Source: Escherichia coli
GTDB taxonomy: Bacteria; Pseudomonadota; Gammaproteobacteria; Enterobacterales; Enterobacteriaceae
NCBI RefSeq assembly: GCF_044324785.1
Contig: NZ_CP172127.1
Direction: 5' to 3' (one strand)
DNA: 64,000 bases
The notes beneath the pieces were generated by a model that did no database searches, was not told the origin of the DNA, and saw only the letters and a list, made by a program, of their open reading frames with translations. Made by a program: the position numbers and the translations under genes. Of the stretch, positions 5,674-21,314 are shown piece by piece. Positions within the stretch are counted from its first letter, which is position 1. Each line of letters begins with the position of its first letter.

Positions 5674-7005
5674 ATGGCAACCACCCGCAACAAGGTGATG
5701 TGGCAGGAAGGGATGCTGATGCGCCCACACCATTTCCAGCAACAGCAGCGTTACAACGACTACCTGGATAACCAGCGCTTCCGGGCCATGAATGATTTAT
5801 CCTGGGGATTTACCGAACTCACCCTCAACAATGAACTGCTGGCGCAGGGTAAGATCATGATTGACAGCGCGTCAGGCACACTGCCCGACGGCACCGTCTT
5901 TTCTATCCCCGACCAGGACGCACTGCCCGATCCGCTGCACCCGCAACATTTTCCGGACGAAAGAAGCCGCAATATCTACCTCGCTCTGCCGGTCGCCAGT
6001 GATGTGAGAAATGAAATCAGCGACGGGCGGCGAATCGGGCGTTACCGGCTGAATTATGCCGATGTCCGGGATCTGCATTCAGAAGAAGGTGACGCGCGAA
6101 CATTGACGCTGGGTCAACTGACGCCGCGCATTATGAGCGGTGCAGAAGATATGAGCGCCTATATTACGCTCCCGCTTTGCCGTATCAGCGATCGCCATGC
6201 CGACGGCTCACTGACGCTGGATGACGATTTTATCCCCTCCTGCCAGAATATTCAGGTCAGTAAGAAACTGCGTGTTTATCTCAAAGAGGTACAGGGGGCC
6301 ATTGGCGGACGGGCAAGCGATCTGGCAAACCGCATTGGCTCTCCGGCGCAGAGCGGCATCGCGGATGTGGCGGAATTTATGATGTTGCAGTTACTTAACC
6401 GTAACCAGACCCGGTTTACCCATCGCGCTCGTCGATCCCAGCTCCACCCGGAAGATTTCTACCTTGATCTTGCCGGGTTGCTGGGTGAACTGATGACCTT
6501 TACCGAGCCGTCGCGCCTGCCCTGCCCGCTTGATGTGTATGATCATCATGACCTGACCAAAACATTTAAAACGCTGTTACCGGAAGTCAAACGGGCGCTG
6601 CATACCGTACTGTCGCCAAGAGCCGTCAATCTGCCGCTACATCTGCGTGACGGTATCTGGCAGGCCGATATTCATGACACAGAACTGCTGCAATCTGCCA
6701 CCTTTGTCCTGGCCGTGGCGGCAAACATGCCGGTCGATCAGATCCAGCGCCAGTTTATCCAGCAGTCGAAAATTTCCTCGCCGGAAAAAATCCGCAATAT
6801 GGTCAGTGTGCAGATACCCGGCATTCCATTGCGTGCCCTGATGGTGGCTCCCCGCCAGCTTCCTTACCATTCCGGGTTCAGCTATTTCGAACTCGACAAG
6901 AGCGGACAGGCCTGGACAGAAATGGCTGCCGCCGGGGCCGTTGCACTGCATGTATCCGGCAGTTTCCCGGATCTGAACATGCAACTGTGGGCGATAAGAG
7001 GGTAA
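5674..7005 (+). CDS. tssK: T6SS baseplate/membrane-complex connector TssK
   Basis: 443 aa; N-terminus VMWQEGMLMRPHHFQQQQRY resembles the conserved TssK N-terminus; position after tssJ. Confidence 0.88.
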   Translation: MATTRNKVMWQEGMLMRPHHFQQQQRYNDYLDNQRFRAMNDLSWGFTELTLNNELLAQGKIMIDSASGTLPDGTVFSIPDQDALPDPLHPQHFPDERSRNIYLALPVASDVRNEISDGRRIGRYRLNYADVRDLHSEEGDARTLTLGQLTPRIMSGAEDMSAYITLPLCRISDRHADGSLTLDDDFIPSCQNIQVSKKLRVYLKEVQGAIGGRASDLANRIGSPAQSGIADVAEFMMLQLLNRNQTRFTHRARRSQLHPEDFYLDLAGLLGELMTFTEPSRLPCPLDVYDHHDLTKTFKTLLPEVKRALHTVLSPRAVNLPLHLRDGIWQADIHDTELLQSATFVLAVAANMPVDQIQRQFIQQSKISSPEKIRNMVSVQIPGIPLRALMVAPRQLPYHSGFSYFELDKSGQAWTEMAAAGAVALHVSGSFPDLNMQLWAIRG

Positions 7006-7009
7006 GACG

Positions 7010-7771
7010 ATGGATGAGGGGTCACTGTCTCTGCCACCATTTACCGGATACGACGAAAAAAGCCAGCGCGACTATCATCTCGCGCTTCGTGGCAACAGCC
7101 TGAATCCGATGATCGACGCAGCCACGCCGCTCCTCGGTATGGTGATGCGCCTTTCAACCATGAACAGCCAGACGATGCCGGAGCATCTTTTTGCTCAGGT
7201 GGTGACGGATGTTCAGGCCGTGGAGCAACTGCTTCAGGAGCAGGGCTACGAACCGGGCGTGATTATCTCGTTTCGCTACATCCTCTGCACGTTTATTGAT
7301 GAAGCGGCGCTCGGTAACGGCTGGTCGAACAAGAACGAGTGGATCAAGCAGTCATTGCTGGTCCATTTCCACAACGAAGCCTGGGGTGGCGAGAAGGTTT
7401 TCATCCTGCTGGAGCGCCTGATCCGTGAACCCAAACGTTACCAAGATCTGCTGGAATTTCTCTGGCTCTGTTTTTCTCTGGGATTTCGCGGGCGCTACAA
7501 AGTGGCAGCACAGGATCAGGGGGAATTTGAGCAGATCTACCGCCGCCTGTACCACGTCCTGCATAAACTGCGCGGCGATGCCCCTTTCCCGCTGTTACAC
7601 CAGGACAAAAAAACCCAGGGCGGGCGTTATCAGCTCATCAGTCGCCTGACCATTAAACATATTTTTTGTGGTGGCGTTGTCGTGCTGGCGTTGTTTTACC
7701 TGTTCTATCTGTTGCGGCTGGACAGCCAGACGCAGGACATCCTGCACCAGCTAAACAAATTACTTCGATAA
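7010..7771 (+). CDS. tssL: T6SS inner-membrane protein TssL (DotU family, no OmpA-like extension)
   Basis: 253 aa; C-terminal hydrophobic helix (FCGGVVVLALFYLFYLL); position between tssK and clpV. Confidence 0.85.
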   Translation: MDEGSLSLPPFTGYDEKSQRDYHLALRGNSLNPMIDAATPLLGMVMRLSTMNSQTMPEHLFAQVVTDVQAVEQLLQEQGYEPGVIISFRYILCTFIDEAALGNGWSNKNEWIKQSLLVHFHNEAWGGEKVFILLERLIREPKRYQDLLEFLWLCFSLGFRGRYKVAAQDQGEFEQIYRRLYHVLHKLRGDAPFPLLHQDKKTQGGRYQLISRLTIKHIFCGGVVVLALFYLFYLLRLDSQTQDILHQLNKLLR

Positions 7772-7779
7772 GGACGTTT

Positions 7780-17626: not shown

Positions 17627-17652
17627 CATTCATGAATACAAAGGAGCTTTAA

Positions 17653-18132
17653 ATGGCGAATTTAATTTATTTAACACTAAATGGTGATAATCAAGGGCTC
17701 ATTTCAAGTGGTTGTTCATCACAACCATCCATTGGAAATAAAGCTCAAACAGCACACATTGATCAAATTATGATTTATGAATTCATGCATGGATTAAATC
17801 GAGATCAAAACGTCAACCATCATCATTTGACAATAAAAAAACCTATAGATAAAGCATCACCCTTATTAGGTAAAGCAATTTGCGACAATGAATTATTGAC
17901 ATGTGATTTTTCCTTTTATCGTACAAATAAATTTGGAATTAATGAACTGTACTATAAAATCAAATTAACTGGAGCAAAGATAAGCGACATTCATGTCTCT
18001 ATATCACATATTGTTGTTGATAACAGCGTTCAACCCGAAGAGTCAGTTTCTTTCAGTTATGAGTCAATTATATGGGAGCATTGTTCCGCTGGCACTAGTG
18101 CATACAGTTTATGGGAAGATCGTCTTCTTTAA
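17653..18132 (+). CDS. hcp: Hcp (TssD) family protein, divergent and AT-rich
   Basis: 159 aa; N-terminal IYLTLNGDNQG and C-terminal SVSFSYESIIWEH fit the Hcp pattern; AAGGAG RBS 8 nt upstream; much lower GC than the upstream core. Confidence 0.8.
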   Translation: MANLIYLTLNGDNQGLISSGCSSQPSIGNKAQTAHIDQIMIYEFMHGLNRDQNVNHHHLTIKKPIDKASPLLGKAICDNELLTCDFSFYRTNKFGINELYYKIKLTGAKISDIHVSISHIVVDNSVQPEESVSFSYESIIWEHCSAGTSAYSLWEDRLL

Positions 18133-18152
18133 AAATATCTGGGATTATTATA

Positions 18153-19049
18153 ATGGCTAACAATATTTTACACTCTTCAACATCAGACAGTGAAAGCAAA
18201 AATACAAGCACTGACAGTACGTTATTTAATGAAAAATTCCCATTTCGATTAAGGCAAGATTTCGCATCAAGAATAACAGAAGATGAAAGTGATTTTTTTA
18301 AATGGAAAAAAATAAGAGAGTTGGCAATTGTGAGCAATCATAAAGAATGGAATAAATATGACTTATTAATTTCAAAATCTGTTAATGAAATCAACATTCA
18401 TTTGTCCAGCACTCCATACTTTCAGCCGTTGGATTGGTATATAATAAAAGCCATGCTCTGGACTGAAAACGATGCGGCAAATACTTCTCAGTGGAATGGT
18501 TATCCATTACAAATTGGTCGTTTTCGGAAAGATAAAGCGATGCCTGCTTTAATCTCTGGTGAAAAATCCACAGCCCTTGTTACCCCACCACAATGGAGAA
18601 ACAAAGCATTCAATGGGTTAAAAGATCCAGAAAGAAATTACTGGGCAAAAGAACAAATAACTGGCTCTCCAGAAGAGAATGTCAAAGCAGCAATTACTTA
18701 CTTAATGATGAAACTTTCTAATACAAAGGAAGAATCAACTATCGATCAATATGACTCAACTCTATATAGCGCCATTGTCCAAAAAGGCGATTTGGCTGAC
18801 AACATCAGAAAAGAGAGAAAAACGACCATACCTAACTTAACGAAAAACAACCCTGGAAAAAATCTCGATAAAATACACCCGGGAGATATTTTATATTATC
18901 AAAAAGCATCCATGAAAGTAATAATTACTGGATGGAAACCTATCACAATAAAAAATGTAGCGATGAATTATAATGGTGGTGGAGATCCCAAGTATGCAAT
19001 AAAACTTCAGTTCGTTTATACATTGCTCACAAAAAACAGAGTGTTATGA
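18153..19049 (+). CDS. Hypothetical protein; candidate T6SS effector (possible peptidoglycan glycosidase)
   Basis: 298 aa from ATG 18153 (alternative ATG 18111); no signal peptide, no Cys; AT-rich; directly downstream of hcp and coupled to a downstream signal-peptide protein. E…GxxQ…AxxYL motif spacing weakly resembles GH23-type lysozymes. Confidence 0.6.
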   Translation: MANNILHSSTSDSESKNTSTDSTLFNEKFPFRLRQDFASRITEDESDFFKWKKIRELAIVSNHKEWNKYDLLISKSVNEINIHLSSTPYFQPLDWYIIKAMLWTENDAANTSQWNGYPLQIGRFRKDKAMPALISGEKSTALVTPPQWRNKAFNGLKDPERNYWAKEQITGSPEENVKAAITYLMMKLSNTKEESTIDQYDSTLYSAIVQKGDLADNIRKERKTTIPNLTKNNPGKNLDKIHPGDILYYQKASMKVIITGWKPITIKNVAMNYNGGGDPKYAIKLQFVYTLLTKNRVL

Positions 19050-19501
19050 GAATGGGAAAAATAACAATTATTCTACTGCTTACATTCTCATGTACAAAAG
19101 GTCTGGCATTTGACATTTCCATGTCTAAAGAATGTAGTGGCGTTGATGAACTTGAATTTGTTGATTGTGTTAAAAACTCATTTATTATGAGCACTATTAC
19201 ACTTAAAAAAGCAGAAGCAAATATAAAAGAGAAAATTAAAAAATGGAATAACGATGAGGACGAAGCAATAAGAAAAGAAGCAGTTATTTCTTTAAAAAGA
19301 CTAGAATCTTCTAATCGGGAATTTATACGTTACAGATTTGCTCAATGCTCTTTTGCTCTAACCTGGGGGGCCAGAGTAGGACGCCTGGCATTCTCTCGAC
19401 TATATCCATGCTATACTGAGTTAAACAAAATAAGAGCCATGCAACTAAACAATGCTTACATTTCAGATTTTCAAAATCCAGATGAGATATCCAGCAAATG
19501 A
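19046..19501 (+). CDS. Small periplasmic protein, candidate immunity protein (DUF1311/LprI-like pattern)
   Basis: 151 aa; ATGA overlap with the upstream gene; cleavable signal peptide (ITIILLLTFSCTKGLA); four Cys and a KKW…RYRFAQC…G…YPCYTELNKIR pattern reminiscent of LprI-type lysozyme inhibitors. Confidence 0.6.
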   Translation: MRMGKITIILLLTFSCTKGLAFDISMSKECSGVDELEFVDCVKNSFIMSTITLKKAEANIKEKIKKWNNDEDEAIRKEAVISLKRLESSNREFIRYRFAQCSFALTWGARVGRLAFSRLYPCYTELNKIRAMQLNNAYISDFQNPDEISSK

Positions 19502-19854
19502 TTATTATAAAATTAAGATTAACATTACTATTTATACTGGCCACAATTACATATTCAGTACAATCAGACGAATTCGATGATCAAACCACTTACACGCAAT
19601 ACCGTTATTTTTCCACAGCCATACCAGAAGATATACGTAGATTTATGTTCTACGTAGATTTGTGCTTTGTAGATTTAGCATTCGATATCGAAACTGACTC
19701 AATGACAGCTAAAAATGATATTATTAATGAATGTACCCCATTAAAAGAAAGAAACAAAACATTAAAAGAAAAATATAAAAAAGATGAAGAGATAATAGCA
19801 ATTCTTTCCATTGCAGATGATACCATTTTAATTTATGAAGAATTAAAAAAATAA
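19498..19854 (+). CDS. Small secreted/membrane protein, possible second immunity or orphan immunity gene
   Basis: 118 aa; ATGA overlap with the previous gene; N-terminal hydrophobic signal (LRLTLLFILATITYSVQS); AT-rich; Lys/Glu-rich C-terminus. Confidence 0.5.
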   Translation: MIIIKLRLTLLFILATITYSVQSDEFDDQTTYTQYRYFSTAIPEDIRRFMFYVDLCFVDLAFDIETDSMTAKNDIINECTPLKERNKTLKEKYKKDEEIIAILSIADDTILIYEELKK

Positions 19855-19978
19855 CTCACATGCAATTCACTGGCAATATATATTATAATTTTATAAAAAA
19901 TCATATTTACATTATAGAAATACTCAGCTCCTGTTTGCTGCCCGCCCTAAACTACAGGCGGCAGCATAACAATAACGA

Positions 19979-20779
19979 TTACTGGAATCGACTCACCAAG
20001 TCTTTCACCATTGATACATATGTTTTTTGTTTCAAATTAAACAGTTGCACTTCCGTAACATGGTCATTTGATAGTTCTTTATTGCTCGTTTTTGTTATTC
20101 CAGCCGGCGGAAAAATTACTCTCGATTCATAATTCACCGGCGACCAGGTAGCCCACTCACCTGTTGCCACATCCACCAGCGTGAAACGTACCAGGTAGCG
20201 CAGGGAGATAGCGTCAGTGAGTTTTTCATTTTTATAGTCGGACCATACTGTTGATTTCAGCACAGAGTCATATTTTCCTGTCTGCAACGTATCATGGTAA
20301 ACAATAATCGCTTTCTGATGCCCTTTCGCAGCCACAAAACGCAATGCCTGCATCCAGTTCATATTTTCAGCACTGGCAACATCCTCGTTCTCATTTTTAT
20401 CTTTATTTTTGTTACAAGTCAGAGGCTTTTGCCTGTCCGGGATACCAGAGAATGTGGAAACAGTATAATATTTTCTCATCTCCTCCTGCATAATGGTCTC
20501 CGGTGCGCGACTGCCAGACTGAACAAGTATTACAGGAGAACTGAGGGGCACACGAAACTCATCTCCTTCAAGCGCAGCTTGAATATCCTCCTCGGATACA
20601 GCCAGAGTGGTTTCATTACCGAATAAATCTTTGTCTGTCAGTTGTGGGGGAGTGTTTTTATTAATATTACTTTGTGTAACTTGAGCTTTTTTCTTTTTTT
20701 CATCAATAGGAGATTCAGAGGCACATCCTGCAAGCAGCGAGAATAACACACATATGCAACAAACCTTTTTTGAATTCAT
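19979..20779 (-). CDS. yafT: Lipoprotein YafT
   Basis: 266 aa; lipobox (LLAGC); lies next to tRNA-Asp aspV as yafT does in E. coli. Confidence 0.8.
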
Positions 20780-21043
20780 AATCGGACACTCCCTCGCCTG
20801 TCATAATGATTAGAATATTTAGCACTGATAACGGACTCTAATTATATACCCCACTTAAATAATAACAAACAAAATCAACATGAAATATACATTCATTTAA
20901 TCAATATAAAATTATTCTCTAAAAATATATTTAAGTTGAATGGTTCGATATCATTATTGAATTTTAATAAATGAGACAACAAGCGAGAGTTACGCACTTA
21001 CGCCAGAGTAAAATCATTGAACAGAGAAATAGCGGGATTTAAA

Positions 21044-21080
21044 TGCAAAAAAACCGCAAAATTAAAAATCTTGCGGTTCT
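21044..21080 (-). terminator. Rho-independent terminator downstream of aspV
   Basis: Stem AACCGCAA/TTGCGGTT followed by a T-run on the minus strand. Confidence 0.6.
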
Positions 21081-21105
21081 CTGAACTCATTTTCATGAGT
21101 GAATT

Positions 21106-21182
21106 TGGCGGAACGGACGGGACTCGAACCCGCGACCCCCTGCGTGACAGGCAGGTATTCTAACCGACTGAACTACCGCTCC
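21106..21182 (-). tRNA. aspV: tRNA-Asp (GUC)
   Basis: Reverse complement matches the canonical E. coli tRNA-Asp over 77 nt (GGAGCGGTAGTTCAGTCGGTTAGAATACCTGCCTGTCACGCAGGGGGTCGCGGGTTCGAGTCCCGTCCGTTCCGCCA). Confidence 0.95.
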
Positions 21183-21314
21183 GCGTTGTGTTCCGTTGGG
21201 AACGAGGCGAATATTACGGATTGCCTCACCCTTCGTCAACGGTTTTTCTCATCTTTTGAATCGTTTGCTGCAAAAATCGCCCAAGTCGCTATTTTTAGCG
21301 CCTTTTACAGGTAT

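Follow-up and report, generated by a model that had tools for sequence, protein, structure and literature searches.

Introduction

The closest described relatives of the system reported here are effector/immunity pairs of enterobacterial type VI secretion systems (T6SS). In enterohaemorrhagic Escherichia coli (EHEC) EDL933, such a pair has been named Etse4/Etsi4 (PMC12981562; PLoS Pathog, March 2026). Toxicity is specific to the periplasm: pelB-targeted Etse4 inhibits the growth of E. coli, cytoplasmic Etse4 does not, and co-expression of Etsi4 rescues the cells. Etse4 is described there as a LysM peptidoglycan-binding protein, 'preventing cell wall formation', and the O157 allele as a derivative of an ancestral 'etse4ori' with a TTA>TAA nonsense change at nucleotides 220-222; that account contains neither a catalytic fold (the word 'transglycosylase' is unmentioned) nor a fourth open reading frame (ORF). 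We analysed the corresponding locus in a stretch of 64,000 nucleotides from an E. coli chromosome (contig NZ_CP172127.1, assembly GCF_044324785.1), which we call the window and whose first letter is position 1. The locus has the same position, from vasL/hcp1 to yafT-aspV-dnaQ, and the same genes as the published one. In O157, however, the effector carries a nonsense codon at position 74, and ORF4 and tssM are frameshifted, whereas all of these are intact in the window. The published toxicity and rescue data concern the truncated O157 allele, which is 97-98% identical to the allele in the window.

A second relative is found in SPI-19 of Salmonella Dublin, where SED_RS06235 (290 residues, LysM and an N-terminal transglycosylase domain found by HHpred) and SED_RS06230 (146 residues, signal peptide, LprI domain) behave as an effector/immunity pair, 'LysM/LysMI', in competition assays (PMC8867033, 2022; reviewed in PMC12288458). 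Deletion of the Salmonella pair gave only a 1.5-fold phenotype. To judge from the termini encoded by the published primers, the S. Dublin pair is a true homologue of the pair in the window, because these termini match the cassette that we call type A below and recovered from Atlantibacter and Yokenella (effector MVNRTASAHK... and ...ALIVADESK; immunity protein ...QIKWLNDYI). The primer-derived peptides had no match among the effector representatives that we retrieved, and the link was made by DNA comparison with type-A loci. Like the pair in the window, the S. Dublin pair belongs to this family and comes after hcp in the terminal position of a homologous T6SS. Its cassette type is a different one, however: type-A effectors are 36-40%, and their immunity proteins 27-35%, identical to those of E. 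coli.

Two further groups of systems are similar in part. The 'hcp islands' of the Pantoea/Erwinia T6SS-1 (PMC3235180; PMC9796082) likewise place a variable array of effector and immunity genes directly 3' of hcp, likewise have LprI-domain immunity genes after lysozyme-like effectors, and likewise keep orphan immunity genes. In the loci studied here, by contrast, the orphan unit is a pair, formed by an LprI gene and ORF4, and hcp itself lies within the exchanged segment. The T6SS muramidase effectors Tge1/Tse3 and Tge2 and the family-1 lytic transglycosylases (MltF, Slt70, MltE, MltC) have no detectable sequence homology to the effector in the window. Moreover, the Tge effectors are paired with Tgi immunity proteins, whereas the effector in the window has a partner of the LprI/DUF1311 family and a LysM domain inserted inside its catalytic domain.

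Taken as a whole, the cassette in the window is, we think it likely, a mobile allele that encodes an Hcp-linked, LysM-anchored, glycan-cutting T6SS effector together with exported immunity. The effector, which lacks a signal peptide, would be synthesised in the cytoplasm, would most likely be loaded into a ring of the cassette-specific Hcp1, and would be injected into an adjacent Gram-negative cell. Within the periplasm of that cell the inserted LysM domain would anchor it to peptidoglycan, and the domain modelled as lysozyme/lytic-transglycosylase-like, with E105 as the proposed acid, would cut glycan strands. Sister cells would be protected by the exported LprI-family protein Etsi4, to which the co-inherited, exported product of ORF4 may add.

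An initial annotation, made from the letters of the window alone, had regarded these genes as the best candidate for an undescribed toxin-immunity pair, with none of the three products encoded after hcp confidently assignable to a family. Neither point stands for the pair itself: the toxin is Etse4, with a LysM domain and a lysozyme-like fold, the 151-residue protein is Etsi4 (LprI/DUF1311), and both these proteins and the Salmonella homologue have been published, so this is not a new system. Only ORF4 is undescribed, being discussed in neither PMC12981562 nor PMC8867033. What is added here is modest: the fold assignment of an unnamed family that combines a lysozyme-like domain with LysM, the borders of the cassette, its dimorphism in the E. 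coli population, and the link of ORF4 to the pair.

Results

An intact cassette at the end of the aspV-linked cluster

The genes in question make up the terminal 'hcp island' of the aspV-linked T6SS of E. coli (the EHEC 'T6SS-2' cluster). They lie on the chromosome, in the aspV tRNA island, in the gene order tssC...tssM-vasL-hcp-effector-LprI gene-ORF4-yafT-tRNA-Asp-dnaQ-rnhA-yafS-gloB-mltD. The cassette and its four genes are as follows.

17587 to 20124, strand not applicable: exchangeable AT-rich hcp-effector-immunity cassette ('hcp island' slot), delimited by haplotype comparison.
17653 to 18132, plus strand: hcp (Hcp1), TIGR03344, E 1e-58.
18153 to 19049, plus strand: effector, 298 residues, intact Etse4 ('etse4ori'), with a predicted lysozyme/lytic-transglycosylase-like domain and an inserted LysM.
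19046 to 19501, plus strand: Etsi4, 151 residues, LprI/DUF1311 family, by Pfam LprI match and RefSeq name.
19498 to 19854, plus strand: ORF4, 118 residues, small exported helical protein with two invariant cysteines, kept in all cassette variants found.

The four genes form one operon-like unit, hcp1-etse4 (intact)-etsi4-orf4. The spacer between the hcp stop and the effector start is 20 nucleotides, and ATGA overlaps join the effector to the 151-residue gene (19046-19049) and the latter to ORF4 (19498-19501). These ORFs, their coordinates, the spacer and the overlaps are exactly as initially annotated. In the window all four ORFs are intact, as are tssA, clpV, tssM and vasL, unlike the situation in O157 and in strain N3. 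Strain N3 shares 99.8% identity with the window, and O55:H7 CB9615 and O157:H7 share 97.7% at the nucleotide level. The window thus offers an intact allele within an apparently intact T6SS, unlike the O157 strain that has been studied, and a suitable background for work on secretion and killing.

Base composition changes abruptly at the left end of the cassette. In windows of 400 nucleotides, the GC content is 0.55-0.61 over 12800-17599 and 0.30-0.39 over 17600-19999, against 0.52 for the whole window. The sharp fall that had been noticed after the vasL stop at 17626 is therefore real, and the sliding-window check places it at 17600 (about 0.56 to 0.30). Total GC content and GC content at third codon positions are 0.57/0.66 for TssM and 0.55/0.62 for VasL, versus 0.33/0.23 for Hcp, 0.34/0.30 for the 298-residue ORF, 0.34/0.24 for the 151-residue ORF and 0.28/0.21 for the 118-residue ORF. 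The extent first given to the cassette, 17640-19860, captures an AT-rich block but not its limits, since low GC content continues beyond 19860 to about 21000 and the segment that is exchanged runs from 17587 to 20124. The same GC step is kept in the sister loci L004 and L013 and in Atlantibacter, Citrobacter and Yokenella; the association of an AT-rich cassette with a GC-rich core is therefore old.

An LprI-family immunity protein and a co-inherited fourth gene

The immunity gene lies directly 3' of the effector gene and is translationally coupled to it. Its 151-residue product, named 'lysozyme inhibitor LprI family' by RefSeq, matches Pfam LprI (PF07007) weakly on its own (E 0.0029). In an alignment of the protein with three homologues, two of the four sequences match LprI at E<=0.001 (best 1.1e-10), and C30, C41, C101 and C122 are invariant among all four. 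Profile, export and cysteines agree in placing the protein in the LprI/DUF1311 family. By inspection, it has a signal peptide, and its N-terminus and that of ORF4 each show a basic n-region followed by a hydrophobic h-region; the N-terminus of the effector is hydrophilic and without a signal peptide. The architecture of a T6SS cargo module, as initially proposed, is thereby recovered for the Hcp, for a toxin lacking a signal peptide and for periplasmic Etsi4, the one demonstrated immunity protein; the second small protein is a candidate for such a role.

The linkage of effector and LprI gene was seen again in a Burkholderiaceae contig. Members of the effector family of about 245 residues also occur as stand-alone two-gene modules in Variovorax, Cupriavidus and a Bryobacteraceae contig (L010 7001-8151, L011 7001-8160 and L012 7001-8166), with no T6SS genes within 7 kb. 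Instead of an LprI-like protein, their partner is a different small exported one with a conserved 'FTGTF.G.GR.C.G' start. The toxin family therefore uses at least two immunity families, and it also exists as orphan modules.

The fourth gene has no detectable kinship to LprI or to any known family. It has no Pfam match even at E<=10, and a reading as a diverged LprI paralogue was rejected (hhalign probability about 1%). Comparison of AlphaFold models, suggested in the initial annotation as a check, was informative for the effector, which is lysozyme-like with a LysM, and yielded for ORF4 only a generic helical bundle (predicted local distance difference test, pLDDT, of 77) with no specific fold match. 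Two cysteines and a DD..IY motif are nevertheless invariant across ORF4 variants that share no more than 29-37% identity. When 100,044 species genomes (one per species) were scanned with the ORF4 alignment, at limited sensitivity, only three loci came up (Atlantibacter subterranea, Citrobacter youngae and Yokenella regensburgei), and all three are tssM-vasL-hcp-effector cassettes.

All complete cassettes that we recovered (the window, L004, L013, Atlantibacter, C. youngae and Yokenella) have ORF4 directly 3' of the LprI gene. Between the window and its sister loci, TssM is 85-87% identical, the effector 36-43%, the immunity protein 27-43% and ORF4 29-36%. Pairwise identities divide the effectors, the LprI-like proteins and the ORF4 proteins alike, each into three corresponding types.

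Type W: E. coli.
Type A: L013, Atlantibacter slot 1, Yokenella, C. youngae slot 2 and S. Dublin.
Type B: L004, Salmonella L002, C. youngae slot 1 and Atlantibacter slot 2.

Two loci carry tandem pairs of an LprI-like and an ORF4-like gene, of two types, behind a single effector (L015 5446-7241 and L016 4424-6270), that is, orphan immunity pairs. In Atlantibacter, a type-A effector with its type-A pair is followed by a type-B pair without a type-B effector; in C. youngae the arrangement is the converse, and the organism's own effector is N-terminally disrupted.

Two readings of ORF4 have to be weighed. The gene could be unrelated to the effector, as a leftover orphan immunity gene of the kind proposed for the Pantoea arrays or as some other periplasmic protein. 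Islands next to hcp do gather orphan immunity genes (PMC9796082), ORF4 lacks recognisable relatives, and Etsi4 alone rescued Etse4 toxicity (PMC12981562) in a strain background where ORF4 is frameshifted, as it is in O55:H7/O157:H7; the last point also argues against ORF4 being required. We nonetheless regard an unrelated ORF4 as somewhat unlikely. The gene never fails to follow the LprI gene in a complete cassette, its three types match the types of effector and LprI-like protein one-to-one, its relatives were found only in such cassettes within the sensitivity of the scan, and the orphan units in two genera are always pairs, never single genes, as one would expect of an ORF4 that takes part in immunity.

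The conserved linkage and type matching make ORF4 a candidate second immunity component, although we rate a genuine immunity role somewhat below even odds. It is conceivable, and we put this forward tentatively, that immunity to the effector family is bipartite, consisting of an LprI-like inhibitor and a disulfide-containing ORF4 protein that are obligately inherited as a unit. One protein could block the catalytic cleft and the other the LysM domain or second lobe; alternatively, the inhibitor could owe its stability to ORF4. Bipartite immunity would explain the always-paired orphans of Atlantibacter and C. youngae, the tracking of types, and the 1.5-fold Salmonella phenotype.

Linkage of the effector to a cassette-specific Hcp

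The hcp product of the window corresponds to Hcp1 of EHEC and O55:H7, where Hcp2 is the main secreted tube protein and Hcp1 is barely secreted (PMC12981562). The Hcp of the window is 71-74% identical to those of the sister cassettes. Effector and hcp are linked, 20-30 nucleotides apart, in all seven enterobacterial cassettes examined. Within E. coli, the Hcp allele is swapped along with the effector: Hcp is 54% identical between the window and the alternative cassette described below, as compared with about 97% nucleotide identity for the core. The cassette contains no PAAR or MIX gene and no adaptor gene (DUF4123, DUF1795, DUF2169). Because of this invariant linkage, the co-exchange, and the lack of PAAR, MIX and adaptor genes, we infer that the effector is probably loaded on, and delivered by, Hcp1.

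The points that weigh against our overall reading concern either delivery or catalysis. As to delivery, Hcp1 could not be detected as a secreted protein in EHEC and only just so in O55:H7, and T6SS-dependent killing was not observed (PMC12981562); in addition, the effector, at about 34 kDa and with two domains, is large for the Hcp lumen. The poor secretion of Hcp1 and the size of the effector would fit delivery on a VgrG/PAAR spike, with the adjacent hcp encoding a second tube subunit, as would the members of about 245 residues in Variovorax, Cupriavidus and Bryobacteraceae that have no hcp nearby. We consider spike delivery unlikely, given how faithfully hcp accompanies the effector, both across cassettes and through allelic exchange, given that genes for spike loading are missing from the cassette, and given that enterobacterial members alone have an extra disordered N-terminus. 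This segment is restricted to the Hcp-linked enterobacterial members, most relatives of about 240 residues beginning at profile position ~25-45; it is only a matter of speculation that the extension, about 45 residues long, is a determinant of loading into Hcp1.

A lysozyme-like fold with an inserted LysM domain

Under Hcp1-dependent delivery the effector would reach the periplasm, and its sequence and predicted fold suggest what it may do there. The features of the effector gene are listed below.

18153 to 18287, plus strand: N-terminal low-complexity extension of about 45 residues, predicted to be disordered (pLDDT 42-55 over residues 1-40).
18465 to 18467, plus strand: codon of E105 (GAA) in the LWTE[S/N] motif, invariant in 75 sequences, at the C-terminal end of helix 95-105.
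18531 to 18533, plus strand: codon of D127, invariant in 75 sequences.
18744 to 18908, plus strand: LysM peptidoglycan-binding domain, by profile and AlphaFold2 model.
18993 to 18995, plus strand: codon of Y281, invariant in 75 sequences.

The start at 18153 (MA...) is the common start among homologues. A longer start at 18111 was rejected: it is unannotated in RefSeq, and the homologues begin at the MA... methionine.

Taken alone, the effector sequence matched no Pfam or NCBIfam model, and a word-indexed search of 5.8 billion proteins returned only six matches. When 1.84 billion representatives were searched exhaustively with a profile, 2414 relatives were recovered at E<=1e-3, of which 153 at E<=1e-30; most are about 240 residues long and annotated merely as 'LysM domain-containing'. 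Ten longer members of the family gave LysM-type matches only when searched against NCBIfam, with no PAAR, VgrG or Hcp fusions. In an alignment of 75 sequences, with relatives 25-40% identical, E105, D127 and Y281 are invariant, and the motifs LWTE[S/N], QIG, N..A.I.YL and YNGG are near-invariant.

The AlphaFold2 model built from this alignment has a pLDDT of 87.7 and a predicted template-modelling score of 0.81, with the first ~40 residues disordered. In fold comparison it scored highest with MltF (10.3), followed by Slt70 (9.1), MltE (8.9), Tse3/Tge1 (8.6), FlgJ (8.6), MltC (8.2), g-type lysozyme (7.8) and Tge2 (7.6). The predicted fold is thus of the lytic transglycosylase/g-type lysozyme type and matches active glycan-cleaving enzymes. 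The LysM domain was matched separately from the catalytic domain in this comparison. It is also recognised by sequence: the family profile matches LysM domains of the PDB at E 2.4e-7 to 1.5e-23, and 56 of the 75 relatives match Pfam LysM. In the model the LysM unit (residues ~198-252) is a beta-alpha-alpha-beta element on a beta-hairpin stalk, with the N-terminal helices before it and two final helices after it. Since these last two helices, which carry YNGG and Y281, follow the LysM, the domain is an insertion and not a C-terminal appendage. The effector is therefore a member of a widespread, unnamed lysozyme-like family with an internal LysM.

On the catalytic side of the points noted above, Pfam SLT (PF01464) does not match the effector, and among the 75 relatives it matches none at E<=0.001 and 11 at E<=0.1. 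An effector profile without the LysM, used in hmmsearch, does not align to the SLT domain of MltD encoded in the window, and hhalign of the family against the same domain gave nothing significant. Profiles with and without the LysM gave nothing significant for SLT against PDB sequences either; marginal EmtA matches (E 0.03-0.07) disappeared with a trimmed profile. As no sequence-level SLT match was obtained, we call the effector lysozyme/lytic-transglycosylase-like by its modelled fold alone and do not file it in PF01464. Similarly, E105 is equated with the catalytic glutamate by motif order and helix position, not by residue-level structural alignment; LWTE[S/N], QIG, N..A.I.YL and YNGG occur in the family-1 order, and no residue-level superposition was obtained. 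With that qualification, E105 is the proposed catalytic acid. Goose-type lysozyme uses a glutamate together with downstream aspartate residues. The invariant aspartate 22 residues after E105 leaves open a hydrolytic muramidase activity beside that of a lytic transglycosylase.

A toxin that is not catalytic at all has also to be considered: the LysM would bind peptidoglycan or its precursors and block wall synthesis, much as the published description of Etse4 has it, and the lysozyme-like domain would be degenerate. We find this quite improbable. The retention of E105, D127, Y281 and the surrounding motifs over 75 such distant relatives is unexpected for a degenerate domain, the fold is that of active enzymes, and the partner belongs to a family of lysozyme inhibitors.

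Alternative cassettes exchanged at one slot in E. coli

The flanks of the cassette consist of genes shared with other strains.

16277 to 17626, plus strand: vasL-like gene (ImpA_N and VasL), the last GC-rich core gene, by RefSeq annotation of N3.
19979 to 20779, minus strand: yafT lipoprotein gene, the right flank, with 86% amino acid identity to YafT of KFu015 and a Pfam YafT match in L004.
21106 to 21182, minus strand: tRNA-Asp (aspV), which marks the insertion of the T6SS island as a whole, by ARAGORN and RefSeq annotation.

We determined the prevalence of the cassette in 5426 complete E. coli genomes, using 17600-20000 (2.4 kb) as the query and a threshold of >=95% identity. It occurs in 364 genomes, O55:H7 and O157:H7 included, and is always single-copy and chromosomal in them. 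The vasL segment 16300-17600 is present in 2933 of the 5426 genomes, and in most of these the match ends at 17586; in megablast, matches in strains without the cassette end at query position 1287, which is position 17586 of the window. An alternative cassette, composed of hcp, a membrane toxin and ykfM, occurs in 3089 genomes. The sister cassettes L004 and L013 had no match among the complete E. coli genomes.

In E. coli KFu015 the alternative occupies 6354-8282 of locus L014, corresponding to 17587-20124 of the window. There, vasL is followed by a different Hcp, a protein of about 300 residues with C-terminal transmembrane helices that is unrelated to the effector of the window and is frameshifted in this strain, the multi-transmembrane YkfM, and then yafT. 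Nucleotide identity between the two haplotypes is about 97% up to 17586, falls to 59-70% over the 5' part of hcp (to 17963), is absent over 17964-20124, and returns to about 96% from 20125, inside the 3' part of yafT. The left border, 17587, thus lies within the last ~40 nucleotides of vasL. As the flanks are the same and the interior is unrelated, the slot holds alternative hcp-effector-immunity alleles that are swapped by recombination in the flanks, vasL and yafT. The initial suggestion that the cassette was acquired separately from the core agrees with this, a core of about 97% identity carrying an unrelated cassette in most E. coli. The dimorphism of the slot offers a natural system for the study of cassette replacement and kin discrimination.

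The same counts all but dispose of the idea, very remote in our view, that the three genes after hcp are structural or accessory T6SS genes of a conserved kind, a finding that the initial annotation had named as a refutation of its proposal: they do lie inside the cluster in the same orientation, but about 2500 E. coli genomes share the vasL at >=95% identity while the three genes are confined to 364 and the others carry an unrelated cassette, the effector family is also found far from any T6SS gene, and toxicity and immunity have been shown by experiment (PMC12981562).

The composition of the alternative cassette bears on one of its own genes. YkfM is known in K-12 as an orphan small membrane protein. 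Given its place in a cassette with an hcp and a membrane toxin, its gene would seem to confer immunity to a membrane-targeting T6SS effector; the literature searched contained no link between ykfM and type VI secretion.

Allele history of the effector

The effectors of CB9615 (O55:H7) and of the window are uninterrupted over 298 codons, and the allele of the window is 97-98% identical to those of both O55:H7 and O157:H7. In O157 strain 17B6-2 there is a stop at codon 74 (TTA>TAA, L74*), absent from both the window and CB9615. In N3, the genome nearest to the window, codon 51 has become a stop independently (W51*). The effector has accordingly been lost independently at least twice, in N3 and in O157:H7, with the LprI gene intact both times (loci compared with 18153-19049 of the window: L001 20554-21450 and L009 2053-2949). 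The N-terminal disruption of the homologous effector in C. youngae is a further case of damage to this gene. Repeated loss of the effector with the immunity gene kept seems to be the rule. For CB9615 (NC_013941, L008 2053-2949), RefSeq shows a partial pseudogene and a 198-residue protein despite the open frame of 298 codons; this gene model is an annotation artefact, probably carried over from that of O157.

Minor features of the region

A scan of 17300-21300 for promoters and terminators gave counts no higher than the shuffled expectation. Among the sites flagged as terminator-like, on both strands, is an 8-bp perfect inverted repeat (TACGTAGA...TCTACGTA) inside ORF4, at 19634-19656, and the regional number of such sites, this one included, is not above what shuffling yields. 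An ORF of 90 residues on the plus strand, 19860-20132, runs into the 3' end of the oppositely oriented yafT and lies partly in the conserved yafT flank; it is absent from the RefSeq annotation and was rejected as probably not a gene. Finally, the mechanically called vasL ORF opens with a GTG codon (16187) and so extends into the end of tssM, whose stop is at 16266, whereas RefSeq, in a near-identical strain, places the start at the equivalent of 16277; translation probably does not include the first 30 codons of the long ORF.

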